Assembly (NCBI GenBank): GCA_963767735.1
Contig: CAVYES010000005.1
Span: 160,001-224,000, forward strand
Length of the DNA stretch: 64,000 nucleotides
From: Candidatus Bathyarchaeota archaeon
Lineage (GTDB): Archaea; Thermoproteota; Bathyarchaeia; Bathyarchaeales; Bathycorpusculaceae
Reading direction: 5' to 3'
Part shown: piece by piece, positions 5,932 to 61,848 of the stretch
Layout: each line of letters opens with the position of its first letter
Numbering within the stretch: position 1 is the first letter of the stretch
Position numbers and translations under genes: made by a program
Notes under the pieces: generated by a model
What the model was told of the DNA's origin: nothing
Databases searched by the model: none
Seen by the model: only the letters and a program-made list of their open reading frames with translations

Positions 5932-7423
5932 CTACGTTGCAGTTCTTTTTTACGAATGCGATGCGTTCGTCTGCAGCGCCATACTTCGTGAGGTATTCGC
6001 CGTAGGTCACCAGCGCCTTCATCGCTCGGGCAGCAGCCTCAGGCGAAGAGTATGCTGGAACGCTGAGCCTGTCGAACCTTGAGCGGGTGTAGAGCGCCAT
6101 TTCTGTTTCTCCGATGTCGCACATTACAATGGGTTTGCAATATCTCGATGCGATTAGGACGATGCCGTCAATGTACTTCTCACGCAGTCCAGGCATGTGG
6201 TGGAGCCCAAGCAAGATTATGCCGTTAATTTCTGGGTCCCGAAACATAACGTCCGCTGAGATTACGAATTGGTCGTCGGTCACTGAGCCAGTGAGGTCAA
6301 CGGGGTTTGTTGTCGCTGAGATTTTGAGGATTTGGTTTGTGTCTTTGAGCTGCTGGAACTCCTCAAGTATGTCGGGAGTAAATTTGTTGACAGTTAAGCC
6401 GAGGAATTCACATTCGTCAACGGTCATGACGCCTGGTCCACCTGCGTCAGTGAGTATGCCTATGTTTCTGCCGACTGCGGGGGGCTGCATGGCAAGGGCT
6501 TTTCCTATGCCGAAGAACTCATCCATGTCTGTTGCCCTTATGACTCCGGTCTGCTCGAAGGCAGCATCATAAATCTTGTCTGACCCAGCGATGGCGCCTG
6601 TGTGAGACGCCGCTGCTCGTGCGCCCGCGGAACTCCTGCCAGTTTTGATGACGACAACGGGTTTTTTAAGAGTCACTTTTTTAGCTATTTCAAGAAACTC
6701 CCGCCCATTCTTAACGTCCTCCAAGTACATGAGCGTCACATGGGTTTCTTCATCGTAAAGAAGGTAGTGAAGAATATCTGATTCGTCTACGTCGCATTTG
6801 TTGCCAAAGCTTACGAATTTGCTTACCCCCATCTGACGCCCTGTCAAGAAGTCAAGGGCAGCTGACCCGAAGGCTCCGCTCTGGGTAATCATAGCGATGT
6901 TGCCGGGCATCGGTCTAGGCGTTGCAACAACTTCGTCTCCTGTGGTGAGAGTTTTGGTTTCGGGAAGGAAAAGGCTGTCAACACCTGTTTTTGAGTAGAA
7001 AACTCCGAGGCAGTTGGGTCCTAAGACGCGTATTCCGCCTTTTTTGGCGATGGCGACCACTTGCTCTTCAAGCTCTACGTTTCCAACTTCTTTGAAGCCG
7101 GCGGTGATTATGATGCAGGCTTTGACCTTTTTTGCGGCGGCTTCCTCCAACACGCCCGGAACGGCTACTGCTGGAATAATGATAACTATTAAATCTACTT
7201 CGCCGGGAACCTCAGTTAAAGTTTTGTAGCACTTAAAACCCAAAATTGAATCTTCATTTGGGTTAACAGGGTAGATTTCTCCTTTGAAAACTCCATGCAA
7301 CTTGTTTTGGGAAAAATTTTTGAAAATTACGTGCCCTGCTTTATCAACTTTTTTGGTGGCTCCGATTATTGCAACTGAGCTAGGATTAAAGAATGCGTCC
7401 AATTTCTTTAATGCTTCTTCCAT
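5921..7423 (-). CDS. acdA: Acetate-CoA ligase (ADP-forming) alpha subunit
   Basis: FFNPSSVAIIGA, LGPNCLG, TQSGAFG, AASHTGAIAG, NPVDLTG. Confidence 0.92.
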   Translation of the reverse strand: MEEALKKLDAFFNPSSVAIIGATKKVDKAGHVIFKNFSQNKLHGVFKGEIYPVNPNEDSILGFKCYKTLTEVPGEVDLIVIIIPAVAVPGVLEEAAAKKVKACIIITAGFKEVGNVELEEQVVAIAKKGGIRVLGPNCLGVFYSKTGVDSLFLPETKTLTTGDEVVATPRPMPGNIAMITQSGAFGSAALDFLTGRQMGVSKFVSFGNKCDVDESDILHYLLYDEETHVTLMYLEDVKNGREFLEIAKKVTLKKPVVVIKTGRSSAGARAAASHTGAIAGSDKIYDAAFEQTGVIRATDMDEFFGIGKALAMQPPAVGRNIGILTDAGGPGVMTVDECEFLGLTVNKFTPDILEEFQQLKDTNQILKISATTNPVDLTGSVTDDQFVISADVMFRDPEINGIILLGLHHMPGLREKYIDGIVLIASRYCKPIVMCDIGETEMALYTRSRFDRLSVPAYSSPEAAARAMKALVTYGEYLTKYGAADERIAFVKKNCNVVTQ

Positions 7424-10384: not shown

Positions 10385-10481
10385 TCGTTATGTCATATTT
10401 CGGAGCTACCATTATTAATCGTAAACATTTATAAATGCTACTACATACGTTAGTAGCTGAAATTAAGGTGAAAAAATGAGT
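10385..10481 (+). repeat. Duplicated promoter, copy 1 (two operators, TATA box, RBS, ATGAGT)
   Basis: Near-identical to 11463-11559; TACCAT-N5-ATCGTA, TTTATAAA, TACTAC-N5-TTAGTA, AAGGTGA. Confidence 0.9.
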
Positions 10482-10793: not shown

Positions 10794-10979
10794 AGTAAGT
10801 TTCTTTCTATTCTGCAAAACACATTAAACGGTTAGGGCTATTAACGAGTACATTCTAGGATTAGATGTGTGGAGTCTTTTATCACAATTTATTAAATTCT
10901 TAATTTTTGTGTCTAATTTTTAAATAATTTCAGAGTATAAGCTTTAATTCTCACAATGCTTTTAATGCATTGGGTTAAA

Positions 10980-11265: not shown

Positions 11266-11462
11266 AGATACTCCAGAAACTTAGAATTATGGCCTTATTT
11301 TTCATGAAGATAAGTCTTAAATCTGCATAGCGTAGAATAGCCTAAATGTGGCAAAAATAAGAATTTGTAGTTAAGCTACTTCTTTGGCAACTTTATCTTT
11401 AGCAAACAAGTATTCGACATATTCTCTTATTGTGCGGTTGGCTTCTTCAGCTCTTATTTTGA

Positions 11463-11559
11463 TCGTTAGGTCATATTTCGGAGCTACCATTATTGATGGT
11501 AACATTTATAAATGCTACTACATACGTTAGTAGCTGAAATTAAGGTGAAACAAATGAGT
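11463..11559 (+). repeat. Duplicated promoter, copy 2, upstream of the ABC operon
   Basis: Perfect TACCAT-TATTG-ATGGTA (11485-11501), TTTATAAA, TACTAC-ATACG-TTAGTA (11516-11532). Confidence 0.9.
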
Positions 11560-13023: not shown

Positions 13024-13825
13024 GTCAGTATTGAACTTAGAGAAAGTGTCCAGAACCTATATGCTGGGCAAACGCAGCGTTCAAGCTCTCAACAACCTGA
13101 ATTTACAGGTTAAGAAAGGAGAGTTTGCGGCGATCATGGGTCCGTCTGGCTCGGGCAAAACGACATTGCTAAACGTGATAGGCTGCATCGACAAACCAAC
13201 TAAAGGCAAAGTACTCTTAGACAACGTTGACGTAGCAAACCTGCCTGAGTCTGAGCTCTACAAGATTCGCAGGGACAAAATAGGCTTTGTCTTCCAAAGC
13301 TTCAACCTGCTGCCATACTTGAATGCTAGGGAAAACGTGGAGTTGCCGATGGCTGCGGCTGGAAAATCTAAAGCGGAAAGAAGTGTCAGGGCAAAAGAGC
13401 TCCTCGACACGGTTGGGTTGTCAGGTAGGGAAGACCATAGACCACAACGCCTCAGCTCTGGAGAGCAGCAACGTGTAGCTATTGCGCGTGCTTTAGCAAA
13501 TAATCCTGCTATTATTCTTGCTGATGAGCCAACAGGAAACCTCGATAGCGAGAATAAGCAGGGAATCATTAAGCTGCTTGCAAACCTCAACCTGACGCAA
13601 GGCACGACAATAATTATGGTCACGCATGACAGTCAAGCCGCACGCAACACAGAGCGAATGCTTCTGCTCAAAGACGGAAAAATAGTTAAAGAAATGCAAG
13701 GCCTGCACGCAAATAAAAAGAACCAGAAATGCCCACACTGCGGAGCCAGTATTCAAATCAATGAAGATGAATGCCCTGTCTGCAAAAAACCTCTCTATGC
13801 AAGCGACGACCTCTTCTCATCCTAA
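13016..13825 (+). CDS. ABC ATP-binding protein (LolD/MacB type) with C-terminal zinc ribbon
   Basis: GPSGSGKT, LSSGEQQR, ILADEPTGNLD, CPHC...CPVC tail. Confidence 0.95.
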   Translation: MSESVLNLEKVSRTYMLGKRSVQALNNLNLQVKKGEFAAIMGPSGSGKTTLLNVIGCIDKPTKGKVLLDNVDVANLPESELYKIRRDKIGFVFQSFNLLPYLNARENVELPMAAAGKSKAERSVRAKELLDTVGLSGREDHRPQRLSSGEQQRVAIARALANNPAIILADEPTGNLDSENKQGIIKLLANLNLTQGTTIIMVTHDSQAARNTERMLLLKDGKIVKEMQGLHANKKNQKCPHCGASIQINEDECPVCKKPLYASDDLFSS

Positions 13826-13878
13826 AATGAAAAACAACAGGCCCTCCCAAAACTTTTTTTAAATTTTGAGGCTTTTTT

Positions 13879-15138
13879 ATGGAAACTCCTACCAACTCAA
13901 CTCCCGAAACTCCTGCCGGCACACCTACTTCTCCATTTCCGAGGACTCAAAAAACTCCAAAAACCATGCGTTTTTCAGTTTTTATTATTGCGTTTCTTTT
14001 GGTTGTAGGTTTGGTTGCAGGAGGTTTAATCGGGTACGCAGTTACTTATTCAGATTTCAATGGGAAACTCAATAGTGTGCAAGCTCAACTGAATGGTTAT
14101 TCAGAAAATGCGACGTATTATCCAAACGCAACATTCGATTTAGGCTCTAATGTTTCGCTTTCGAATTTGTATCAGCAAGTTCAAAACTCAGTGGTTGTAA
14201 TTCAAGATGTCGTGCCCGAATATGGCGGTTTCTTTAATACATTGATAGGTTACGAGGAACAGCAGGGTTCAGGATTCATAGCTTCGGTGGATAATCAATT
14301 GGTCATTGTAACCAATGACCACGTGGTAGCAGATGCAAATAATATAACTGTAAGTTTTGCAGATGGAGACAGTTACCCCGCAACTGTATTAGGTTCAGAT
14401 GCTCTATCTGATCTTGCAGTGATTTCGATAACGCCTATGCCGAGCGGTTTGGTTCCTTTGACGCTTGTTAGCTCCAGTACCTTGCAGGTTGGACAACCTG
14501 TTGTTGCGGTAGGATCACCTTACGGATTATCAGGCACACTGACCACAGGCGTTATCAGCGCCTTGGGAAGAACAATCACTGAATCAAGTGAAACAGGAAG
14601 TACGGGCCCAACAATTTCGGATATAATTCAAACAAGCACCGCCATTAACCCAGGCAATTCTGGCGGTCCACTTCTAAATTATGCAGGCGAAGTCGTTGGT
14701 ATAACTACTGCAGCCGTGACCAGTTCTACGGGTTTAGGTTTTGCAATTCCATCAGATACTATAATACGGGAACTTAGCTCGCTGGTTACAACTGGCTCAT
14801 ATAATCAGCAACCCTCCATTGACGCCACGCTGACAGACATGAACTATCAGATTGCTCAAGCCATGGGAACCAACGTTACTTACGGATCGCTCGTTGAAAG
14901 CGTTTCGACACAGAACGGGCTCAAAGGCGGCTCAACTCAAATCTCAATATTAGGCTCAACCGTAACAATCGGCGGCGACATAATCATAGGTATCAACGGC
15001 ACAACAATAACAAACACGAACTCATTGCTTAGCTATCTTGAAGAGAACACTTTGCCGGGACAAACTGTTAACTTCACTATAATACGTAACGGGCAAACAC
15101 AGATTGTTCCAGTTACGATAGGAAAACTATCCGAGTAA
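13879..15138 (+). CDS. htrA: HtrA/DegP serine protease with PDZ domain
   Basis: TM anchor, GSGF, VTNDHV, DLAV, INPGNSGGPL. Confidence 0.93.
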   Translation: METPTNSTPETPAGTPTSPFPRTQKTPKTMRFSVFIIAFLLVVGLVAGGLIGYAVTYSDFNGKLNSVQAQLNGYSENATYYPNATFDLGSNVSLSNLYQQVQNSVVVIQDVVPEYGGFFNTLIGYEEQQGSGFIASVDNQLVIVTNDHVVADANNITVSFADGDSYPATVLGSDALSDLAVISITPMPSGLVPLTLVSSSTLQVGQPVVAVGSPYGLSGTLTTGVISALGRTITESSETGSTGPTISDIIQTSTAINPGNSGGPLLNYAGEVVGITTAAVTSSTGLGFAIPSDTIIRELSSLVTTGSYNQQPSIDATLTDMNYQIAQAMGTNVTYGSLVESVSTQNGLKGGSTQISILGSTVTIGGDIIIGINGTTITNTNSLLSYLEENTLPGQTVNFTIIRNGQTQIVPVTIGKLSE

Positions 15139-26287: not shown

Positions 26288-26389
26288 AGCGGGGTGGGGT
26301 AGCCAGGATTAACCCGCTGGGCTCATAACGGCACAATTGTGCTGTGAGACACCCAGAGATCACTAGTTCAAATCTAGTCCCCGCTACCA
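26288..26389 (+). tRNA. tRNA-Met(CAT), initiator type, with a 23-nt canonical intron (26328-26350)
   Basis: A1:T72 pair, GGG/CCC anticodon stem, BHB motif CTCA-TAA / TGAG-ACA, encoded CCA. Confidence 0.95.
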
Positions 26390-49749: not shown

Positions 49750-49796
49750 TTGGAGCCTTCGGCGGGATTTGGACCCGCGACCATTACCTTACCAAG
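49750..49796 (-). repeat. att site (duplicated 3' part of tRNA-Thr)
   Basis: TTGGAGCCTTCGGCGGGATTTGGACCCGCGACCATTACCTTACCAAG is identical to 55937-55983. Confidence 0.95.
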
Positions 49797-50656
49797 CCGC
49801 CCGATTCATTGAACCGATGAGCTTTAGAGCTTTTGATTGGGTTGAATTCAAAAAATTCGTCCAGGGAAAATACCGCAAAACCACCGCCAAAAGAGTCATG
49901 TGCTATGCCAAGCGCTACTACCCTGTGCCTGAATCTGGCAATGTCGGGCAACTCAATGTTGTCCCATCAACCGTTAAATCTGAAGTAATCAAAAGTCTAA
50001 TCGTGATCTCGAAGTACATCGGGTGCTATGAGCAGTTCAAGGCTTCACTGAAAAGCTACGGAATCAAATCAGCCCAGCCAGACGCGCTTGCCGCCTTCGT
50101 CAGAATATACAACAATAACAACAGCAATTTGGACGAGTGATTCGCCAAAGTCAAGCCAATACTCACGCCACAGGAGAATTTATTGCTGAAATTCTTGCAC
50201 CAGACAGGGCTACGATGCAGCGAGGGCATCGAAAGCTTCAACCTGATAATCGAGCTTTCGCAGAAGCAAAGATTGCACGAGTACCTAAGCACTGAAACCG
50301 GGATCCTATAGAATTTCAGGTACAAAGGCAAATTCCTGCGCGGCACCAAAAATGCCTTCATCAGCATTGTGCCCGAAAGCTTGATCGGCGAAATTACCGG
50401 CAGCCAATTTGTCACTTATGCAGCCATCACCAAAAAGCTTCAAAGGCGGAAAATTCCAACTCGAATCAGCGAGCTATGGGATTACTATGGCACCTTCATG
50501 ATCAGGCATGGACTCGTTGCCCAAGAAGCAGACTTGCTCTGTGGAAGGATTCCGTCAAGCATATTTGTCAGGCACTATTTTTCCCCAGCGATAAAGGACC
50601 TTAGAGATCGAACCTTGAAATCTCTTGAAGAAATGGACGTCAAAGGCCTTCAATAA
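49751..50656 (+). pseudogene. Tyrosine integrase C-terminal part (att-split, SSV-like), inactivated
   Basis: Single frame reading through att (WSLRRDLDPRPLPYQ); TGLRCSE, RGTKNAF, ELWDY, LCGR, FVRHY; in-frame stops at 50138 and 50309. Confidence 0.88.
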
Positions 50657-50771
50657 ATTAGGGGGTATAGAGGAAGGTCTTCCGTCTAAAAGCTAATCAT
50701 CAGAACCTATAAAAACAAACAAATAATATTCAAGAGGCTCGTCTCTATACCGCCCATTTCTCGAAAGGCCT
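50643..50771 (+). repeat. Cassette-boundary repeat A
   Basis: Core TAAAAGCTAAT-CATCAG-AACCTATAAAA at 50687-50714; AAGGCCT at both ends; overlaps the integrase stop. Confidence 0.85.
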
Positions 50772-50838
50772 ACGGAAAAAAAACGGTCTTAGATCAACAA
50801 AAAAGTTGGAGAATAAAACTCCCTATTGAATTCTTACC

Positions 50839-51129
50839 TTATGGCTTTGTGAGAGTTATCTCCATAGTTGAAACCATTCTTGACCTGTTTTCGCCTTCTC
50901 TTGGCGGCATCTCTACTGTTCCGATTGCTACATTGGTCACTTTGAGGTCTTTTATAAAGCGGTTTCTTGTAATTTCTGCGCAGTCAACTGCGGTCGTGAT
51001 TGCTTGTCCTCTTGCTTTTAGTGTTATTTCTTTTTCGGTGCCTGAAGAGAATGCTGTTATGATAGCGAGCACATAGCTCATTGGCGGTTTGTTTCCGACG
51101 AATATTACGTCATTAGGTTTTTGTGTCAT
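50839..51129 (-). CDS. albA: DNA/RNA-binding protein Alba
   Basis: IFVGNKPPMSYVLA, LKARGQAITTAVD, VSTMEITL. Confidence 0.95.
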   Translation of the reverse strand: MTQKPNDVIFVGNKPPMSYVLAIITAFSSGTEKEITLKARGQAITTAVDCAEITRNRFIKDLKVTNVAIGTVEMPPREGENRSRMVSTMEITLTKP

Positions 51130-51200
51130 ATTCTTGTCACTTCCCGATTTCATATGGTTCCGTCTGGTATATGGCTAGTGCCGTTTTAGATATGGTTGCC

Positions 51201-51337
51201 TAGGCCTTCCAAAATTTTACCCCCATAGAGAGAAAGACTTGTCAGGTTTTATCTAATCATCGCAACAAATAAAAATCAAATAAATTAAATCAAACTTATC
51301 TACTCTACGCCCGCCAGTTTCCGGAAGACCTTTGCCC
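51201..51337 (+). repeat. Cassette-boundary repeat B
   Basis: Core TTTTATCTAAT-CATCGC-AACAAATAAAA at 51247-51274. Confidence 0.85.
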
Positions 51338-51686
51338 TGATTGCGGCAGACAAGAACGGCCGAACCGGGCAAATCGAGACTTACAGATGCCGCGACTGCT
51401 GCCACAGGTTTTCATGATTAATCGTTTTTCTCTATTTTTTCATTTTGCTTATTGCTTAATTCGTAAGATATAATAAACTGAGTGCATTATGATCTGAAAG
51501 GCAAGTCTGAGTGGGGGTGGCGAACGTAGGTCAAGGCAAGGACGGCAGGTGCCGAGCAAAAGCCCGGGCAATCCTCGAGAGGCTCCAAAAAGATTGATGG
51601 CAGAATCCTTAGAGACTACTTTCACTTAAGTCTCCACTGCCACTTCACTCCTTTACTTCGTTATATTTTTAAGGAAAACCAGCAAA

Positions 51687-51878
51687 ATGTTTTGCGCTAT
51701 GTGCGATCAATGCCTGGTCAAGTGCTGCTATGCGTGCGGTCGCATGCCAATGGGCGGAGGCGGCAAGTGCTGCCCGAGATGTAAGATCCGCTTCTGCTAC
51801 ACCTGCACGCTCGAGCTCACGTATGCCCAAAAGAAGCTCCCGCTCGAATGCCCCATGTGCGGTGGAAAATTTGGGTAG
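51687..51878 (+). CDS. Small Cys-rich zinc-finger protein
   Basis: Five CxxC pairs in 63 aa. Confidence 0.65.
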   Translation: MFCAMCDQCLVKCCYACGRMPMGGGGKCCPRCKIRFCYTCTLELTYAQKKLPLECPMCGGKFG

Positions 51879-52237
51879 CGGAGAAGGTCGTAAAGTTGAA
51901 AAACACAAGTTATTAGAAAAAACTTCTAACGCCAAAAGTCTGAGCACAGCAGCCAAAGAAACGGCAAGCGAGACCGTAAAACTCAAACATACCGCTGCCA
52001 AGATTGCGCGCACAGGTTTACATAAGTGCATTCATTGCTTTTTCAATTCTGTCCCAAGCGATATCAGTCGATTAAGACATTCTATATCGTTTCTTCACAA
52101 TTTCATCATTTGGGTAAAGTAGAATCATTAAGTGATAAATTGCCTTTTCAACATCGTGAACATACGCATTTGCTTCCTCTGATGACTGGATCATATGTTT
52201 TGAAAAAGGTTTAGTAGGGCAGTCGTGCTCGCTTTAT

Positions 52238-52513
52238 TTACCTTTGAGATTCTTCTATGATAGGTAGCACTTGCGTGAGTTCTCGGAGTTGCTTAAGCAC
52301 AGTTATGCCTTGTTGTGTGACGGCGAAAACTGTGCTCCTTTTTTTAATAGTGCGTTCTTCGACCAGTCCCTGTTTGATAAGGAAGTCCAGATGGCCTCTA
52401 AGCATGCTGCCATTGACGTTAGCTTTGTACATGATGTGTGTCAGCTTTAAGGGACCTAACCGCGCCAACGTGTTGAGGATATCAATGTACGTTTCTAGTT
52501 TTGATCGTCTCAT
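52238..52513 (-). CDS. Winged-helix transcriptional regulator
   Basis: MRRSKLETYIDIL...THIMYKANVN...LIKQGLV...VTQQG. Confidence 0.88.
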   Translation of the reverse strand: MRRSKLETYIDILNTLARLGPLKLTHIMYKANVNGSMLRGHLDFLIKQGLVEERTIKKRSTVFAVTQQGITVLKQLRELTQVLPIIEESQR

Positions 52514-52794
52514 AGGTGTTGCCTCAAGACTCTCCAGTTTCACAGGTGGTCTTTCCACTGTATAAAAAAGTTTATTTTTTTTATAAGCTTTTGCTATTTT
52601 CATTTGCTTAATTCATTGTAAACTGTATTCGGAATCAAGAAATGAGTTTTAAAGCTAAATGATGAAGAGACTTATTGCCGTGCTGTTTCTGTGATTGCGC
52701 AAAGCCTATAACAACGTCTTATATGCGATGCGGGAGAAGTAGGAATCCCTTGCTCCTTTACCTATCAAAAGGGGGCAAGTCTGGAGTTAGAAAT

Positions 52795-53076
52795 ATGACA
52801 AGAAAAAGCACCCAAGAAATCAACTTCTCTTCTGGTCAAGACAGCAAAAGCAAATCTGCTGTTCGCAAAGAAAGGATGCCAATTGTCAGATGCTTGTGCG
52901 GCTCCGAAATTTTGGTGGTGCCCGATTTGAAAGCCATGAACCGTGCTATAAAAAATCATGTTGCCGAACACAAGCAAGCACGTGATGGTTCAGATAGGCT
53001 TGAGTCGTTGACGGAGTTCTTGATAGAGCAGGTTCTTACAGTGGCAAGCGAAATAAATCTGCCGAATGTAAAATAG
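52795..53076 (+). CDS. Small putative zinc-binding protein, paralog 1
   Basis: IVRCLCGSEILVVPDLKAMNRAIKNHVAEH (CxC...HxxxH). Confidence 0.75.
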   Translation: MTRKSTQEINFSSGQDSKSKSAVRKERMPIVRCLCGSEILVVPDLKAMNRAIKNHVAEHKQARDGSDRLESLTEFLIEQVLTVASEINLPNVK

Positions 53077-53092
53077 TCATGAACAATCTACC

Positions 53093-53230
53093 AAGGCTTC
53101 CAAAAATTCACCCCCATAGATGGAAGAAGGCTTTTCGGAAAATAGCTAATCATCAGAGCATATAAAATAATTTAATATAAATTATGGCTTCTCATCCTAT
53201 GGCGCCCAATTCGTGACAGGCCTTCTGCCC
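53093..53230 (+). repeat. Cassette-boundary repeat C
   Basis: Core AAATAGCTAAT-CATCAG-AGCATATAAAA at 53140-53167. Confidence 0.85.
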
Positions 53231-53360
53231 TCACAATATACGCTGAATCACCTTCCGGGCGGTTTAATTTTCGTGATGCACGTATAGTACTATTTTTTAA
53301 ACTAAAGTGACTAATAAGTACAAAGGAACAGTTCGAGAATCAATCTTGAAAGTGATAAAA

Positions 53361-53633
53361 ATGGGCGAAACAAAATCGCAAAAAAAGCAAACTGGACAAT
53401 TAATAATTCGCGGGATCACTCAAGATAACGCTACAAAACTTATCGAGTTTCTCACACAAGGAACATTGCTGTCAGAAGAGAAACTGTTTGAAACGGCTGA
53501 CTTCTGGCCTCAGAACGAAATGGATGACTATACCGATGCCGTGATCGCAGCGATGCTTATAGCAAAAAATACCGCGCACGCTAAAGACCACAAAAAGAGT
53601 CGCAGGCCACAAAATGTAATTCACTATGAGTGA
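53361..53633 (+). CDS. Hypothetical protein
   Basis: ORF with GTGA-type RBS before ATG 53361. Confidence 0.55.
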   Translation: MGETKSQKKQTGQLIIRGITQDNATKLIEFLTQGTLLSEEKLFETADFWPQNEMDDYTDAVIAAMLIAKNTAHAKDHKKSRRPQNVIHYE

Positions 53634-54379
53634 CGGTATTATTTTTTGGACTTAAACTGCCCGACACCCATTCCCTCGCAATGTGCATATCATCGATTTA
53701 TCCCGAAATTTTTTCCGGGAAATTTTTGACGCGCCCGAGCGAGTAAGCCTAGCCTTTGAACGGAAAAACATTTCTGCCTGAGTGGATTTTTGGTACTTTT
53801 TTGGAAGTTTGTCAGACCTTTCTAACGGACGGTGGCTATTCGTCCGTCTGAAGTATCTGTCATTTGCCATTCGAGCGTGTCGCCGGGTTGTAAATTCAAA
53901 AATTCAGCTATTCCTTCAGGCACCGTTGCTCTGGGGATTTCGATTTTGGTCTTGCTATCGATGTTTTTGATTTGAGGCGAGCCTCAAAATTGGTTTAAGC
54001 GGATTAAACAAAGGACCCAAAGCGGAGTCTAATTCGAATCTCTTGAGACGCGATGAATGTGGTGTAAAAGAGTTCAAATGCGGGGACCCGGGCATGTTGC
54101 GATGGACCGAAAACCGCTCATAACGCGGCGCCATAAAAGTTATTAAATTTTCGTCATTTTTTATCATCCTTCAATCCGTATAAAGTGTTTTGGGGACCTC
54201 GGTCGGGTCGTCCGCCGATTCCGGGAAGGGCTCCCAATTTACTTTATATGGATTAAATCATATTAGGCAAACAAGCAAGCACTCTCGTCCAGTTTGACAA
54301 GCAGTTTCGCGCTCAGTAAAGGCATGGATTTGTCGGAAGCTTCACGCCCACGCAGTGTACGCTGTTTCAGGGCACGCGT

Positions 54380-54513
54380 AAGGTCTTTCAAATTCTGAGG
54401 GGTATAGAGGGAGTAAGGCTTGCCGGGTTTTACCTTATCATAAGAACATATAAAAAATATAAAATAATTTTGGCTTGTCTTTCTCTAAGGTGTCCGATTC
54501 GGGAAAAGACCTT
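54380..54513 (+). repeat. Cassette-boundary repeat D
   Basis: Core TTTTACCTTAT-CATAAG-AACATATAAAA at 54428-54455. Confidence 0.88.
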
Positions 54514-54626
54514 TCTTAACTTCGCATCACTGTTTCCGTGATTGTGCCAAGCCTATCACAATTTCTTATATGCTTTGCAGACTAAATAGAACTTTACTAA
54601 TCTGGTAAAGTTAGGAATGTGAGGTC

Positions 54627-54911
54627 ATGACCAAAAAAAGCATTCAAGAAATTAACTTTACTTTTGATCAAGACCGCAAAAGCAAATTCGTTTCTCATAA
54701 GAAAGGCATACGTACTATCAGGTGCGCATGTGGTTTCGAAATTTTGGTGCTGCCCGATTTGAAAGCTATGGACCGAGCTATAGAAAATCATTTAGCCGAG
54801 CACAGGGCAGCAAGTGGTTGCTCAGAAAGTAATTTAGCGCTTGATTGGTTAAGACAGTTCTTGACCGCGCAGCTTTTAAGAGCGGCAAGCGAAATAATCT
54901 GCCAACCGTAA
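54627..54911 (+). CDS. Small putative zinc-binding protein, paralog 2
   Basis: TIRCACGFEILVLPDLKAMDRAIENHLAEH; clearly homologous to 52795-53076. Confidence 0.75.
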   Translation: MTKKSIQEINFTFDQDRKSKFVSHKKGIRTIRCACGFEILVLPDLKAMDRAIENHLAEHRAASGCSESNLALDWLRQFLTAQLLRAASEIICQP

Positions 54912-54931
54912 ATTAGCCTGAACAGTCAACC

Positions 54932-55070
54932 AAGGCATTCCAAAAATTTACCCCTATAGAGGGAAGATGTCTTTCGGGATTTACCTTATCATCAGAACAT
55001 ATAAAATACACTAAATAATTTTTGGGTTGACTTGTCCTATCCCCTCCAACCGGCGACAGTCCTTTGGCCC
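54932..55070 (+). repeat. Cassette-boundary repeat E
   Basis: Core ATTTACCTTAT-CATCAG-AACATATAAAA at 54979-55006. Confidence 0.88.
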
Positions 55071-55248
55071 CAAACAATGTACAGTGATCGGGCAAGTTTG
55101 CGCTCCGGCGATTTTTATGTATCTTGGATGCGCAAGGTTTAAAAAAAGTAAATCGTTTGCTTGATTGGGCAGGTTCAGAGGGAACTGCTGGATGGTTCGC
55201 CATCTTCACGCACTTCCGCAAACTCTAACCTCCCCGCTTGAATTCTTC

Positions 55249-55379
55249 AAGACCTTCCGAAATCTGGGGGTATAGAAGGAAAGGCTTGCACGATTTTACC
55301 TTATCATCAGAACATCTAAAATGAAAGAAATAGTTTTAGGATTGACTTATCCTATCCTGCCCAGATTTTGACATGCCTT
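55249..55379 (+). repeat. Cassette-boundary repeat F
   Basis: Core TTTTACCTTAT-CATCAG-AACATCTAAAA at 55294-55321. Confidence 0.88.
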
Positions 55380-55707
55380 AGGTGTCTATTAGTTGCAGTT
55401 CCGAAATTCTTTTCTGCACCGTCTCGGACAGCTGTTGTCGCAACGGTTCGTCTGGTGTTGTTTTATCTATTTCGTCTATTTTTTGGGCGAGTTCCTCGTC
55501 GCCGATTGTGGTTCTTAGCCACTTTTGGAAGTCGCGGCGTTCGAAGTGGAACCTGATTGATTGTATGTCCAAGTGCTTAAGGTCGCTTAAGAAAGAGCAA
55601 AGAGACGTGGCTGTCTCGCCTGAATAATGGCCATCTGGCGCAAAAAAGTGGAAACCTCGCTCGTAAGGAACTGGGCTAAGTATTTTCTGTGCCTTTTCAA
55701 CGCTCAT
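55378..55707 (-). CDS. DUF5752-like small protein
   Basis: ILSPVPYERGFHF, SIRFHFERRDFQKWLRTTIGDEELA. Confidence 0.8.
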   Translation of the reverse strand: MSVEKAQKILSPVPYERGFHFFAPDGHYSGETATSLCSFLSDLKHLDIQSIRFHFERRDFQKWLRTTIGDEELAQKIDEIDKTTPDEPLRQQLSETVQKRISELQLIDT

Positions 55708-55768
55708 TGACAAGGTAGTAATCTCCAGATGATAATGGAGACAAGATGCTAAAATGGTTTTTGCGCTT

Positions 55769-55904
55769 AAGGTCTCCAAAAACTGGGGGTATAGAGGGAT
55801 AAAGCCTTTCGGGTTTTATCTTATCATCAGAACATATAAAAATCAAATAAATAAATTCAAACTTACAAACTCTATACATGGCAGTTTTCGACAGGCCTTT
55901 GCCC
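55769..55904 (+). repeat. Cassette-boundary repeat G
   Basis: Core TTTTATCTTAT-CATCAG-AACATATAAAA at 55814-55841. Confidence 0.88.
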
Positions 55905-55937
55905 CAATCATGGCATGCAATGAATCAGGGGCAAAGT

Positions 55938-56014
55938 TGGAGCCTTCGGCGGGATTTGGACCCGCGACCATTACCTTACCAAGGTAACGCCCCACCGGGC
56001 TAGGCTACGAAGGC
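55938..56014 (-). tRNA. tRNA-Thr(GGT)
   Basis: GCCTTCG/CGAAGGC acceptor stem, TTACC-TTGGTAA-GGTAA anticodon arm, encoded CCA. Confidence 0.93.
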
Positions 56015-56188: not shown

Positions 56189-56273
56189 GCAGGGGTCTCC
56201 AAGCCTGGTCAACGGAGTAGGGCTTAGGACCCTATCGCGTAGGCGTTCGTGGGTTCAAATCCCACCCCCTGCA
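56189..56273 (+). tRNA. tRNA-Leu(TAG)
   Basis: GCAGGGG/CCCCTGC stem, TAGGG-CTTAGGA-CCCTA anticodon arm, long variable arm, GTTCAAAT. Confidence 0.95.
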
Positions 56274-56408
56274 CTTTTTTGGTTATTTTCTGCTTGCTTC
56301 TTGCTATTTTCTCGCTTTTTCGCAAAGAAATGGTAAGGAATATTCACTTTGATTGGAGTTCAAACCTCCAGATCATAATAGGGCTCAAATTCTGGAAAGG
56401 TCATTGCC

Positions 56409-57257
56409 TCAAATGAATCGACTAATGACAATAGCTATGACGGCGACTGTTAGAACGAGGTAGAGTTCGCGGATTCTCTTTCTTCCTTCTTGTGAGGTCT
56501 GGCTTGTCAGCAGCCTAAGAGAGAAGTATACGACGCCTAAATCCGAGGTTGCCATCACAGCAATATAGACGTTGCCTAGCCAACCTGCTAAGAAAGGAAG
56601 AAAGCTTAAACCTACAAATGCAGCGAACAGCAAACCAGAAACTCGCAAAGCGAATCTCCGTCCTTTAAGAATGCCTATGCTTCGGGCATGACGTGCCTTG
56701 TCGCCTTCAATGTCCATGGCACCACCGGCAATCTCCTCGCCCAAATCGAACAAAAACGCTAAACTGCCAAAAGTCCAAACAACACCGCTAAACAAACCAC
56801 CTACCACCAGCCCTCCGAAAACAAAAGTGCTGGCCACCGAAAAAGCAACCATCATATTTCCAAGCAGCCCCATTTCCTTAATCCGCCAATTGTAAAGCAG
56901 ACCCACTGTCCATATGACTAAAGCTGCAATGAGCATGGTTAAATTCAAGAATGCAGCTGCCAAAAGCCCCGCAAATGAAAACAAGCATGCAACCACGATT
57001 AGCTCAAAAATAGTGATTCGCCCCGATGGCAACGGCCTGTCAGGGTGGTTGATTTTGTCTACCGCTGAGTCGAAGTAATCATTAGTTATCATGGCTGTTC
57101 CTGCGATAAAGAAGCCTGTTAGAAAGCCCAGAAGTAGCATAGCAAATGTTGGCAAGTAACCGGACGCAATGATTTCGCCAGCTATCACACATATGCCCGC
57201 TGCTAATGGGAGCTCAGGTTTGAGCAAATCAGAAAACGCCTGCACTTTTCCCTTCAT
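56409..57257 (-). CDS. UbiA-family prenyltransferase (DGGGP synthase-like)
   Basis: NDYFDSAVDKINHPDRPLPSG, DIEGD. Confidence 0.88.
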   Translation of the reverse strand: MKGKVQAFSDLLKPELPLAAGICVIAGEIIASGYLPTFAMLLLGFLTGFFIAGTAMITNDYFDSAVDKINHPDRPLPSGRITIFELIVVACLFSFAGLLAAAFLNLTMLIAALVIWTVGLLYNWRIKEMGLLGNMMVAFSVASTFVFGGLVVGGLFSGVVWTFGSLAFLFDLGEEIAGGAMDIEGDKARHARSIGILKGRRFALRVSGLLFAAFVGLSFLPFLAGWLGNVYIAVMATSDLGVVYFSLRLLTSQTSQEGRKRIRELYLVLTVAVIAIVISRFI

Positions 57258-57550
57258 ATTCACGTAATTCAGCCTCAATTTAATTTACCCAAACTTGCTT
57301 TTTCAATTTTCCATTCGACATAGAAAAACTTCAAGTGGCGATTATCAGCCTTCTGATGGGTTTTGAAAAAAGGGGAAATGGTAATCCATTTGCGGCTTAG
57401 ACGATGAAAGCTTTAGTGGCCTTCCATCGCAAATTGGGCATTTAAGCGGAAGGTTCTTTTGCAGATATATTTGTTCAACCATACATGGGAAGCAAAAATA
57501 ATTATTGCATTTTAGGCAATGCACACGTTTTTCTTTTATTAATTAATTTT

Positions 57551-57769
57551 TTACTGAGCGGCTCGTTGGGTCGTCTGGCTGGATGAGCTAGTTTTTAGGG
57601 ATTTATAATCCAAGCTACCAGCGTAAATTCCCAGTCCTATAAGCAGCAAACCAATAATGAGGGCTGCAATACTGTATGGGCTTGATTCGCCTAGGAAAAG
57701 GATGCCGGTTAAAAAGGCGAGAAATATGCCTAAGCCTGAACCTAATAGTATTACTCCCCTGTATTTCAT
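57551..57769 (-). CDS. Small two-TM membrane protein
   Basis: Two hydrophobic helices. Confidence 0.55.
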   Translation of the reverse strand: MKYRGVILLGSGLGIFLAFLTGILFLGESSPYSIAALIIGLLLIGLGIYAGSLDYKSLKTSSSSQTTQRAAQ

Positions 57770-58446
57770 TGCTGTTGACCTGCCTATTCTCGTGGTGGTT
57801 TATCCTGTTTTGGGGCTTTCTTAAAGATTTTGGCTTTTGTTCGCCTTTGAAGCTGGTTTCTAGGCGCGCCGCCCATCGCCAACAGGTTGTTTTCCGCATG
57901 CGTTACGCGGTTTAGTTATCCATTAATTTGTATAACACAAGAATTACTGTTCAGCATAGTTAGTTCTACATTGCACCTAGTTTATAAAAAGCGTTTAAAG
58001 CGATTTAGTTGTAGCTGATTTAATGCCTACAATAAAGTTAACTTGGCGATGCAAAAGAGATCTTTTATCTTGCACTGTTTGCCGAGCTTTAGACGGTTAC
58101 ACTTGGATATTCGACGTTAAAAAAGAGAAGAAAACTTCCAGAGTACTGGTTCACCCGGTTTATGGTACTCTCGGGGGTCTAGATTGGTTACTTTAACAAT
58201 CACTATCACGGTTATGCTCCAGAGAATTGCCTTCAGCTTATTGAAAAACTGGGATTAATAACTGGAGAACAAAAGAGAGCGAAGGCTAAAAACACCGTTA
58301 AGCAATCACAATTAGGATCATTCTTTAGCTAAACTTTCCACTAAACATACAGCATTCAATGAAAGCTTATTCTGCGCTTAATTTACCTCGAGTTTACAAA
58401 GGTTAATATTGCTTTAAAAAATCAAATAGGATGTGGAGAAGTCGTT

Positions 58447-58668
58447 ATGACTGAATTAGAAATTGCAGTAGCTGCAATGCATAGATTATGTAAGAAAGCT
58501 GGTGCTGAAAGAGTGAGTGAAGCAGCAGCAAAGGAACTTGCAAAGGCGCTTGAAGAAATCGGCGTGAAGATTGCTAAAGAAGCACTTGACTTTTCAATGC
58601 ATGCTGGAAGGAAAACCATTAAAGTTGAAGATATTGAGATTGCTGCTAGAAAAGTTATGGGAAAATAG
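58447..58668 (+). CDS. Archaeal histone
   Basis: [31 protein letters not shown]. Confidence 0.95.
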
Positions 58669-59031
58669 TAATAACTTAAACTCGCTTTTCGGACTATTTA
58701 TAAAGAGAACTATACAGCGTGGGCTCTAACAAGTTATAAATACAAAGTACTACCATATCTAGAATCCCGAGGTTAAAGTAGTGGCTAAGAAACCAGTCAA
58801 GAAAGAAGAAAAGAAACCAGCAAAGAAAAAGTAAAACCCTCGGTATGAGCAGATTTACTTCTCTATTTTTTCTTTTTTTCTCATCAAAAAGAGAGCTTTC
58901 TCGCAAAGATTCTCATGGGAATAGAGAAGCCAAAGACACCCTGAAATTTCTCTGGCAATTAACGCTGAAGTATAATAGGCAAAGTTTTATCCGCTCATCA
59001 AGTCTGTTATCACATTAATGGAGGCGAAATT

Positions 59032-59193
59032 ATGGCAAAATGTCCCAAATGTGGAAAAGAAGTAGCTCCTAAAAAAACTTGGAAGATGGCTGGAAGACCT
59101 GACAAAACGGGAAAGAGAACAGAACTTACCATCGGTCTGTGCGAGTGCTGCGGCAAAACCTTTAGAACCACACTCAACAAACAGAAAATCTAA
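59032..59193 (+). CDS. Cren7-like zinc-binding chromatin protein (below ORF-track cutoff)
   Basis: MAKCPKCGKEVAPKKTWKMAGRPDKTGKRTELTIGLCECCGKTFRTTLNKQKI; GGAGG RBS; T-rich terminator. Confidence 0.75.
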   Translation: MAKCPKCGKEVAPKKTWKMAGRPDKTGKRTELTIGLCECCGKTFRTTLNKQKI

Positions 59194-59325
59194 CTTGCTG
59201 AAATATTAAAAATCACCTTTTCTTTTCTTTGTGATTAATCGATTTTACAATATTAGTCAATGCACATCTGGAGTTCAGAAGATTCTAATTGACTCCGCAA
59301 TATATTGGTTAAGAAGCGAGTGAAT

Positions 59326-59612
59326 ATGGTCAAGCTGACATTTTATTGAGGCGTAAACGAGATCGGCGGCAGCAAGATTCTTTTAGAGGATAACGGAACC
59401 AAAATATTTCTTGACTTCGGGCAATCTTTCACTTTTGGCTCAGGGTTTTTTACGAGCTGGCTTCAGCCAAAAGTCCTTAACGGTTTTGGCGATTACTTTG
59501 AGTTCAACCTGTTACCTAAGATAAGCAGCTCGGACTCTAAGGAAATGTTTGATCCCACGAACCTCGCGCCGAGGTTGACCGTGTGTTCCTGTCGCACGGC
59601 CACTTAGCCCAC
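59326..59612 (+). pseudogene. Truncated MBL-fold hydrolase (RNase J-like)
   Basis: MVKLTFY*GVNEIGGSKILLED...FLDFG, later VFLSHGHLAH; contains a stop and a frameshift and is truncated. Confidence 0.75.
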
Positions 59613-60040
59613 TTACAACGCTGCGCTCAAATAATGAAGAGATGCCAAAAAACTCTATAATTTATTTATACTTTTCCGATGCAACTGCGCGCTAGCAAAA
59701 GTCACGGCATCGGTACAGCTGAAGTTCTTCTGAGCTGATGGACCCTTGCCCCGTTCTTGGTTGCCCTTTGGCGTTTGAAGTTTTTTGTAATAACTTCAAT
59801 TTTTCAACTTTTCGGCAATTTCAGATTTAGGTTATTACATGAAGCATTTGCCTTTGCCATCGATTTGGTCGATGGTGCATTCGCTTTCCATCGGTTTGAT
59901 TGATTAGCGAAGCGCAATCGTCAGAATGTGGCTGTATCATTACAATCACATAAGTTTAAGTCTGAAAACGAGAGCCGTTCTGTTAGCGAGCTTGCTTTTG
60001 TATAAACTCGATGAATTTTTGAGAATGGAGGTGAAAATTA

Positions 60041-61273
60041 ATGGCAGATGTAATAGATATAGCTATTGAAGCTGGGGGTTTCAAAACATTTGTCGCAGCA
60101 GTACAAGCGGCAGGATTAGATGAAACATTAAAAGGTAAAGGACCGTTCACGATTTTTGTGCCAGATGATGCTGCATTTGCAATGCTTCCCGCGGGCACTG
60201 TCGATGAACTATTGAAAAATGTTCCAAAACTTAAGGCGATTCTGATGTACCATGTTCTTCCGGGAAAGTTTACGGTTGACGAAATAGCTCAAATGAAGAC
60301 CGCTAAAACTATTCAAGGTCAAGAAGTCAAGATTGACGCCGCCCATTGGTGGTCTCTTCACTTTAACCCAATAATCAATGATGAAGCACACATGATAAGT
60401 ACAGACATTATAACCGATAACGGCATAATACACGTTTTAAACAGAGTGCTTATGCCAAATATGGAACTTACCTGTCCAGTGTGCGGAATGGGCTTTATGA
60501 ACATGGAAGAAATGAACACTCATACCAAAACGGCTCACGTAATTGAGAAAACACCAGAGTCACCGCCGTCCAGTGGAGAGATGCCTATGGCTGAGAAAGC
60601 AGCCGAACCTATTCAAACCGCTGAGGTAATGCCGGTAGTTGAGAAAGCACCAGAACCGATGCTACCTGCCCAAGTACAGGAACCAATGCTACCTACCCCA
60701 GAACCGGAGCCAATGCTACCCACCGAAGTTACGCCAGTAGTTGAGAAAGTGCCAGAACCAATGCCTCCCACTGAACCTATGCCAATAGTTGAGAAAATGC
60801 CCGAGCCAACGACGACCGCAGAGGTAGTGCCAGAGCCAGTTTCTGCAACGGCTAAAGCGGTGGCAGGAGTTTTTGAGATCATACGAGACGCTGATAGAAA
60901 GTTCCGTTTCCACCTCAAAGCGACTAACGGACTGATAATTGCTGTAAGCCAATCTTATGGAACAAGAGAGGCAGCTGTAAAAGGCATTGCCTCAATTATG
61001 AAGAATGCTCCAATGGCTAAGGTTGTTGATCGCACATCGGCAGGAGGAGCTATGCCAGAGATAAAGCATGCTGGAATTGTACAAGACCCAGTGTTTGAGA
61101 TCATGTGCGATGTTGGCGGAAAGGTCCGTTTCCATCTGAAAGCTGCTAACGGACTGATAATTGCGGCAAGCCAATCATATGGAACAAGGGAATCAGCTGA
61201 AAAAGGCATCGCATCAATAAAGAAGAACGCTCCAATGGCTAAGGTTGTTGATCACACAATGGCAGCGACTTAA
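60041..61273 (+). CDS. Fusion protein: fasciclin (FAS1), C2H2 finger, Pro/Glu-rich linker, two YegP/DUF1508 domains
   Basis: GPFTIFVPDDAAF, NGIIHVLNRVL; CPVCGMGF...HTKTAH; EKxPEPM repeats; two copies of RFHLKAxNGLIIAxSQSY. Confidence 0.88.
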   Translation: MADVIDIAIEAGGFKTFVAAVQAAGLDETLKGKGPFTIFVPDDAAFAMLPAGTVDELLKNVPKLKAILMYHVLPGKFTVDEIAQMKTAKTIQGQEVKIDAAHWWSLHFNPIINDEAHMISTDIITDNGIIHVLNRVLMPNMELTCPVCGMGFMNMEEMNTHTKTAHVIEKTPESPPSSGEMPMAEKAAEPIQTAEVMPVVEKAPEPMLPAQVQEPMLPTPEPEPMLPTEVTPVVEKVPEPMPPTEPMPIVEKMPEPTTTAEVVPEPVSATAKAVAGVFEIIRDADRKFRFHLKATNGLIIAVSQSYGTREAAVKGIASIMKNAPMAKVVDRTSAGGAMPEIKHAGIVQDPVFEIMCDVGGKVRFHLKAANGLIIAASQSYGTRESAEKGIASIKKNAPMAKVVDHTMAAT

Positions 61274-61848
61274 GCCCAACCCCTTTCTTCTTTTTTTTAA
61301 GTTTGATCAACAAAGTTAGAGGTCTAATTAAAGAGAAGAGGATTTTTATGTAAAATCGAGGGCGGAGCGTAAGATCATGAAAACCCGTGGCACAGTCACG
61401 GCATCTGTAAGTCTGAATTTGCGCGGTTCGAATATACCTAATTCAGTTTTTTGGAGTTTCTTTGACTGCCGCAATCAGGGCAGCTATTTGTTCAATTTTG
61501 TTCGATTCCTTTTTCATTTCACGAAGAAAGAGGGAATTTGCGAGTGATACCTCAAGAACTTCAGGGGTTCAAATCCCACCCCCTGCACTTTTTGCTTATT
61601 TTTCTGCTTGTTTCTTGCTATTTTCTTGCATTTTCGCAAATAAAGGATAAGACATATTCACTTTAGCGGGGTTCAAACTCCAAGTCCATAATGCGGTTCG
61701 GACTCTAAAGGGTTTAAATCCCATAGAGCCTTGCACCGCTTTAGGCTCGAATTCATGCCTCTTCTAAATATCTAGCTTAACAATATCGCTTTTGCAAATA
61801 ACTTATATGATACTTTTGGTTTTATTTTAAGTTCGGGAGAAACGAACC

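Follow-up and report, generated by a model that had tools for sequence, protein, structure and literature searches.

A mosaic array of direct repeats in a suicidal-integrase element of a Bathyarchaeota archaeon: candidate recombination sites of a cassette-like system

The stretch of DNA analyzed here (the window) comprises 64,000 nucleotides of a Candidatus Bathyarchaeota archaeon (contig CAVYES010000005.1, positions 160,001 to 224,000) and contains a 6.2-kb element integrated at a tRNA-Thr(GGT) gene. Between its two attachment (att) copies the element encloses seven copies, A to G, of a repeat of ~131 bp (table 1). The att copies form a 47-bp direct repeat corresponding to tRNA positions 31/32–77, and the peptide encoded by att starts the C-terminal part of a split integrase gene (intC) at attL and ends the N-terminal part (intN) at attR. 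A remnant of ~35 bp is left of intN, and the right end of repeat G has taken the place of most of the gene. Suicidal archaeal integrases (SSV1, pTN3, pT26-2) are known by a split-gene layout with the att site within the integrase gene (PMC8371274). The same intN/intC split around att is found here, together with a tRNA repeat in the 40–50-bp range that consists of the tRNA 3′ half and is bounded at the anticodon loop, and with an integrase of family PF16795; the element is thus a member of the suicidal SSV1-type integrase elements.

Within the integrase family (PF16795, phrog_5127) the catalytic R, K, R, and Y residues are invariant in 33 relatives. Intact relatives are up to 90% identical to the window copy and come mostly from Bathyarchaeia, and the integrase DNA of the loci collected for this study is at most 88% identical to that of the window. 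The window copy itself is broken by two premature stop codons and by the replacement of a catalytic Arg by Trp (ELWD for ELRD), which makes the array in the window a frozen relic. The top 12 ranks of a fold search with a predicted integrase model (predicted local distance difference test, pLDDT, 78) are all tyrosine recombinases, with XerA, an integron integrase, and the SSV1 catalytic domain as the top neighbors, none of them at E ≤ 0.001. A sequence search with the integrase profile found no relative among solved structures, and a search for full-length proteins joining intN and intC returned two proteins only, of 163 and 182 amino acids.

A profile search (nhmmer) over the whole 64 kb identified the seven copies as direct repeats of 130–134 bp, all on the plus strand and spanning 50642–55898, and no eighth copy anywhere in the window. 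Repeat A lies to the left of the range given in the initial annotation, whose description of the repeats is otherwise borne out: the left halves fall into two types, with a C-run in B, C, and E and a G-run in A, D, F, and G; B and G have different left types yet close right halves (76–77% identity, compared with 39–58% for other pairs, or 47–69% over a different column range); and C and E, which both follow paralogous genes for Zn-binding proteins (76% DNA identity), share left halves (73–82%) but differ in their right halves (only 54–61%). Overall, left and right identity among the seven copies are negatively correlated (r = −0.26; 9 out of 2000 column-shuffled splits were as low). Repeat B has the left type of C and E, yet the gene upstream of it (Alba) is unrelated to theirs. 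The DNA after B and the DNA after G are unrelated beyond a few shared bases; B and G have no common cassette, though their right halves are shared.

A total of 37 related integrase loci, mostly from Bathyarchaeia, were collected (numbered with an L below), and 16 of them contain the repeat, in 39 copies (32 full and 7 partial). For the alignment, the 32 full copies were combined with the seven of the window, again giving 39, without the 7 partial copies and a single weak hit of E = 0.048. Among these aligned copies 37 out of 39 are oriented as the integrase, the two inverted ones both being in L010, and the first copy overlaps the end of an integrase or integrase fragment in 13 of the 16 repeat-bearing loci and in the window. 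In a tree of the 37 integrase C-termini, 15 of the 16 integrases of one branch (support 82/93) have a repeat within 1.6 kb downstream and the sixteenth has a copy 2.7 kb on, compared with 0 out of the other 21 integrases. No label shuffle out of 500 was as clustered. A single clade of repeat-bearing integrases was not rejected but is unproven (approximately unbiased test, p-AU = 0.36).

Each site consists of two inverted arms of ~40 bp around a center of ~50 bp with a nearly invariant 24-bp block. The left arm runs from a palindrome (AAGGCCTT) through a G/C-rich run and ATAG to an inner AAGG motif, the center combines this block (CTWATCATCAGAACATATAAAA) with an AT-rich stretch, and the right arm repeats the left one in inverted form. 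A TATA-like sequence (ATATAAAA) in the center is, by likeness, a candidate promoter. The two left types are reverse-complementary over the G/C run (26 G-type and 13 C-type copies), a difference that may have arisen by local inversion. The 39 copies average about 63% identity. Cargo stop codons lie at repeat ends in the window and three other loci (offsets of 0 bases at F and in L029, −1 in L031, and +3 in L007); most ends have no such neighbor. The arms do not covary (own-arm match within a site 0.50, other pairs 0.52), and copy A alone among the seven folds better than shuffled sequences (z < −2). On these two grounds the arms are best read as putative protein-binding dyads in double-stranded DNA rather than as the two sides of a hairpin. 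Three other readings of the repeat were rejected: an attC-like hairpin, since in addition none of the 39 copies has the attC boxes (RYYYAAC and GTTRRRY), whether at its ends or elsewhere along the scanned strand; cassettes with matched terminal inverted repeats, since the right arm of one copy matches the left arm of the next at 0.49 and others at 0.52; and an origin recognition box (ORB) or restriction site, since 13 of the 39 copies have a C-run in place of the G-run.

Separate trees of the left and right halves conflict, in agreement with the initial proposal that the halves assort independently: a right-half clade (support 96/91) unites B, G, and three further copies of both left types, while the left tree splits the C and G types (97/98). 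A crossover in the core had been proposed as the cause, and the best single breakpoint in the 39 copies does lie in the central conserved block. The gain from a single breakpoint peaks on a plateau at columns 60–84 (294–322, compared with about 95 for permuted columns), and a Mantel boundary scan that included three variant-core copies has its minimum just to the right of the core (columns 83–88). Linkage between left and right halves is below that of single-tree simulations at the fitted scale (0 out of 40 as low).

The further proposal that each half travels with its adjacent cassette holds for the left halves, which follow the upstream neighbor. At 14 integrase-adjacent sites the left segments are alike at 0.96, 0.84, 0.79, and 0.57 (background 0.73, 0.46, 0.66, and 0.45), and the right segments of the same sites on average at 0.50, 0.56, and 0.64 (background 0.49, 0.54, and 0.61), remaining at background even where the upstream DNA is >90% identical. 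Right halves follow the downstream cargo in two out of five independent cases. A cassette common to L004 and L006, at different array positions, is 81% identical overall, and the identity covers the downstream left half and ends where the core begins; at the upstream sites of this cassette the right-inner halves are alike (top 7% of pairs) and the left types are opposite. Right-inner halves are also alike at three kinase-adjacent sites (top 3–16% of pairs). Three out of five independent internal truncations stop at the inner AAGG motif, and judging by the junctions, new joints also form at AAGG/CCTT and AAGGCCTT motifs.

The arms of the repeat reappear in the att site. The flank of attL in the window matches the arm motif at 12.2 bits (p = 1e-5 per position), and the 7-base anticodon loop aligns with the 7 bases of the arm that end in CTAT. 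Restricting the motif to right arms, or to the left arms of non-first sites, leaves the match intact (p = 7e-5). With the motif of all arms, the attL flanks of repeat-bearing elements score above −2.3 bits in 11 out of 11 cases, whereas those of repeat-less elements (5 Thr and 6 Val) score below −6 bits in 11 out of 11. An inverted arm lies on the intN side of attR in the window (shuffle p = 0.002) and in L006 (p = 0.001); p is below 0.05 in four out of six repeat-bearing elements, compared with none of six other pairs plus L010. The resemblances of the arms and of the core to att point to the element's own integrase as the candidate enzyme. As far as the aligned sequences go, the sites are mosaic with a main breakpoint in the center, cargo has been exchanged between genomes and between array positions, and the arm motif is common to the repeats and attP.

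The reading we prefer, to which we give an even chance, is that the repeats are composite recombination sites, recognized by the integrase, of a cassette array that is neither an integron nor a dif module. The SSV1-type integrase, either supplied in trans or made from a gene that is whole only while the element is an excised circle, would bind the repeat arms and exchange strands in the center, whose 5+7 bases resemble the att crossover. A cassette would then consist of a right half, the cargo, and the next left half, and would be excised as a circle and reinserted elsewhere in direct orientation, which would explain the direct orientation of the repeats. Less clearly, the capture of new cargo might proceed by a cruder joining at the AAGG/CCTT motifs that lie at the outer ends and in the inner left arm.

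Several observations weigh against this reading. A single-breakpoint peak in mid-repeat is also expected from scattered crossovers, and the simulations did not separate one breakpoint from several. Secondary breakpoints lie in the left arm (columns 36–48) and in the right arm (columns 114–130), so breakpoints are not confined to the core as had been predicted, and painting of the copies places switches along the whole repeat, with the highest bin at columns 127–132. Inner-left and inner-right segments are linked at r = 0.25, compared with 0.09 under a clean central split (40 out of 40 simulations lower), and the deficit of left/right linkage vanishes when the simulated divergence is doubled (29 out of 40 as low). 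The right half misfits the downstream cargo in three out of five independent cases, the pooled test being non-significant, and in 9 out of 14 first sites the right half is still first-site-like despite changed cargo (4.8 expected). The junction of B to the Zn-ribbon fragment that follows it recurs at the first site of L006, the right halves of these two sites being unrelated. Two inverted copies with variant cores occur in L010, in a tRNA-Leu element with a different recombinase. At the att site, the match of the arms rests on one branch and on coding sequence, repeat-bearing and repeat-less att flanks overlap somewhat with the reduced motifs, and the central core resembles the att crossover modestly (p about 5e-3, 3–10 of 12 matches).

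The spread of switch points along the repeat is what the main rival explanation would give, one that we regard as serious though unlikely: the repeats are kept for another role, and the mosaics come from homology-driven exchange, preferentially in the most conserved block, by host RadA or by a pTN3-like low-specificity integrase activity. The role could be that of an integrase-binding or regulatory site, a promoter (the TATA-like ATATAAAA in the center being a candidate), a replication or packaging signal, or the ends of ancestral elements stacked at one tRNA, and stacking would give the duplicated integrase 3′ ends with a first site that are present in several loci. IntpTN3, a related integrase, recombines homologous segments down to about 100 bp according to PMC5495485. 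The same source gives identical stretches of at least 104 bp for IntpTN3 and of at least 500 bp for host recombination, and copies of ~63% identity are far below either. Exchange by homology also leaves aside the match between repeat arms and att arms, the sharp outer ends, several of which abut cargo stop codons, and the homology between L004 and L006 that ends at the core.

A dif-like reading of the center, in which an 11-6-11 site would be used by host XerA or by another recombinase acting in trans (e.g., the tRNA-Leu Zn-ribbon integrase) with the arms as accessories, we consider improbable. No register in the center is more symmetric than 11-6-11, sister elements (L012 and L018) have real dif-like palindromes after the integrase, and repeat arms abut the 5′ ends of Zn-ribbon integrases in L010, in L006, and at B. 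Mean arm complementarity in this register is 0.48 over the 39 copies, however, compared with few or no mismatches in the dif sites of Thermococcales (PMC2958812), and at a symmetry of 48% the core makes a poor dif site. If a host enzyme acted on the repeats, there would be no need for them to track a single integrase branch, as they do, and a survey of 87 open reading frames (ORFs) in and around the elements found no second recombinase except two in L010.

Miniature inverted-repeat transposable elements (MITEs) are short, non-coding, and bounded by terminal inverted repeats. A very improbable reading takes the repeat as such a miniature transposon, hopping as a unit on terminal inverted repeats of ~40 bp, with the mosaics as later rearrangements. 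It would account for inverted arms with sharp ends, for the two inverted copies, for repeat ends that cut intN at several points, and for the same cargo gene lying at differing distances from the right end in different loci. It is opposed by the orientation of 37 out of 39 copies with the integrase, by halves that travel apart, and by the confinement of the repeats to islands (no copy in the other ~57 kb of the window, in a scan of the window and of flanks of up to 10 kb). No target duplication or rejoinable flanks were seen by eye, though one might take the terminal palindrome AAGGCCTT for a target duplication. Of the initial claim of site-specific exchange instead of whole-repeat transposition, the second part finds support, since a uniform orientation and the restriction to islands disfavor transposition; a site-specific exchange, as opposed to one driven by homology, we infer.

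A bolder version of the preferred reading, which we put forward tentatively and with some doubt, is that of a new cassette platform: one suicidal SSV1-type integrase would insert the element at tRNA-Thr, capture genes of the chromosome and of islands at the outer AAGGCCTT ends, and shuffle them at the core via double-stranded sites of ~130 bp derived from attP, with no need for IntI, an attC hairpin, or a host Xer. Such a platform would be an archaeal counterpart of the integron that evolved independently. Suicidal-integrase elements are presented in the available part of PMC8371274 without an internal array of secondary sites or cassette exchange, whereas here the inverted arms of attP recur in every repeat. 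The lambda-type attP, in the same source, likewise has a 7-bp overlap set in a longer site with accessory arms, and is used once for integration; here many degenerate copies per element lie between blocks of cargo. Compared with integrons, including archaeal ones (10.1101/2022.02.06.479319), the element has an SSV1-type integrase instead of IntI (which is marked by PF00589 plus an IntI-specific domain), no attC boxes, and no hairpin covariation, and three proteins of this integrase family had no match in NCBIfam, integrase_gron included. The element shares with integrons a tyrosine recombinase that adjoins a privileged first site and then an array of degenerate sites in direct orientation, together with small, varied, exchangeable cargo that includes defense genes. 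It differs in that cargo lies in both orientations, often as several genes with their own promoters, and in that the putative crossover is near the middle of the site and not at its end. Sites of the pdif type alternate in orientation. The likeness to the pdif modules of Acinetobacter (PMC6449649) and to archaeal XerA/dif consists in cargo between short sites, halves that belong to neighboring modules, and the 11-6-11 register; the present sites are 130 bp long with long arms, weakly symmetric cores, and one orientation, and are tied to one integrase branch. From MITEs they differ by a single orientation, confinement to islands, internal mosaicism, and the lack of a visible target duplication.

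No match was found in plasmid and phage collections, one repeat copy being tried in each, and Rfam at the gathering threshold gave two tRNAs only in the window and no structured-RNA match for the repeats. No description of the repeats was found in literature listings, in the beginnings of abstracts, or in passages of a paper on Bathyarchaeia viruses (PMC10848311). The element thus belongs to a known kind, and its cassette-like array is apparently undescribed.

Table 1. Features of the tRNA-Thr(GGT) element in the window
Feature	Position	Strand	Remarks
attL	49750..49796	-	47-bp tRNA-Thr(GGT) 3′ part from anticodon loop; 100% direct repeat of 55937-55983
intC, C-terminal part of split SSV1-type tyrosine integrase	49751..50656	+	PF16795; pseudogene
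intC-side arm of att site	49787..49812	+	Repeat-arm motif match in register with anticodon loop; per-position p 1e-5 to 7e-5
Repeat A	50642..50771	+	G-type left; first site; overlaps integrase stop codon
Alba gene, cargo A-B	50839..51153	-	Pfam PF01918, E 6e-19
Repeat B	51200..51331	+	C-type left; B/G-type right
Start-less Zn-ribbon fragment (CPxCG...CxxC)	51333..51418	+	Six-frame reading; joined directly to B right end
Small Cys-rich Zn-finger ORF, cargo B-C	51687..51878	+	Weak PF14369 match, E 0.0016
Winged helix-turn-helix (HTH) regulator, cargo B-C	52238..52603	-	PF14947
Zn-binding protein paralogue 1, cargo B-C	52795..53076	+	
Repeat C	53092..53223	+	C-type left
108-aa hypothetical protein, cargo C-D	53307..53633	+	No Pfam or PHROG match
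Start-less remnant, cargo C-D	53822..53985	-	Six-frame reading
Repeat D	54379..54512	+	G-type left
Zn-binding protein paralogue 2, cargo D-E	54627..54911	+	
Repeat E	54931..55063	+	C-type left
Repeat F	55248..55378	+	G-type left
DUF5752 protein, cargo F-G	55378..55779	-	PF19027; stop codon coincides with F right end
Repeat G	55768..55898	+	G-type left; B/G-type right; displaces most of intN
intN-side arm of att site	55916..55941	-	Inverted copy of intC-side arm; inside intN remnant; shuffle p 0.002
attR and intact tRNA-Thr(GGT), integration target	55937..56014	-	att copy 55937-55983

The cargo differs between arrays and lies in both orientations, and some of it recurs at other array positions. 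It includes proteins with SIR2, HEPN, NucS, and PLD domains, a CheB/CheR kinase, regulators, Alba, a transglutaminase, and many unknowns. The HTH+Zn module that lies between B and C in the window occurs also in L029 and L032, as the first cassette there, and the window's interval between E and F (184 bp) contains no credible gene. The remnant between C and D presumably resembles an AbrB-type antitoxin. It is part of a largely non-coding stretch (53670–53990) also present in L001 and, in two places, in L004; this stretch directly follows a repeat in some cases and is possibly a backbone element. The Zn-ribbon fragment after B resembles the N-terminus of tRNA-Leu-type integrases, an intact one of which, with its Zn-ribbon, is present in L010. 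Fragments of the integrase 3′ end with a first-type site are found in L003, L029, L031, L032, L033, and L035, some of them in other islands; that of L033 lies in a tRNA-Leu island, and a longer integrase fragment lies in a tRNA-Val island of L015. The unit of integrase end, site, and cargo appears to move.

The window contains a second island at tRNA-Leu(TAG) (56189–61664), bounded by a 105-bp repeat (56246–56350 and 61560–61664) and free of the 130-bp repeats. It has host-like genes and a decayed fragment of a Zn-ribbon integrase (61393–61482, minus strand). One of its ORFs (58447–58668) we take to be histone-like, and a 410-amino acid ORF (60041–61273) has a Pro/Glu repeat linker, a duplicated C-terminal domain, and what is presumably a fasciclin-like N-terminus. 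A 48-bp inverted repeat (88%; 51889–51936 and 59767–59814) links the tRNA-Thr and tRNA-Leu islands, and both of its copies read as decayed N-terminal sequence of a Zn-ribbon integrase. The tRNA-Leu element of L010 (16550–20877) is plasmid-like, with a Zn-ribbon integrase, an ATPase, and a SWIM-like ORF; of its two inverted repeats, one lies beside the 5′ end of the integrase and the other overlaps gene ends.

Other site-like sequences were observed in related loci. Four GTTAAC-N4-GTTAAC palindromes in L012 (at about 6137–6175, 13795–13833, 14133–14164, and 14250–14287), two in each orientation and the first just after the integrase, are possibly an archaeal dif-module array. In L018, near-perfect, dif-like 11-6-11 palindromes (10883–10946 and 11459–11522) flank the cargo of a small tRNA-Val element. 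A different motif of ~40 bp lies downstream of the integrase in the tRNA-Gly/Thr(TGT) group (L017, L019, L021, L024, and L025), recurs inside some of the elements, and may represent an analogous site family. Elsewhere in the window, a near-identical palindromic repeat of 53 bp (10424–10476 and 11501–11553) lies directly upstream of two genes and is probably a duplicated promoter/operator, and an atypical tRNA-like gene with a 4-base anticodon predicted by ARAGORN (26288–26389), which had no Rfam match at the gathering score, is perhaps an intron-containing tRNA.

The cassette platforms known so far are mainly integrons and dif modules, to which an array driven by a suicidal integrase of archaea would, if true, add an independent solution. 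It would also give a use to an integrase whose own gene is destroyed when it integrates the element, since the enzyme would work on the array only while the element is a circle. To our knowledge, the first making of cassettes is still an open question for integrons; since the points at which a given cargo is joined to site ends vary, the present system may show it. The lineage is abundant and mostly uncultured, and the array would explain the turnover of small defense, toxin-antitoxin, regulatory, and host-like genes at one tRNA locus.

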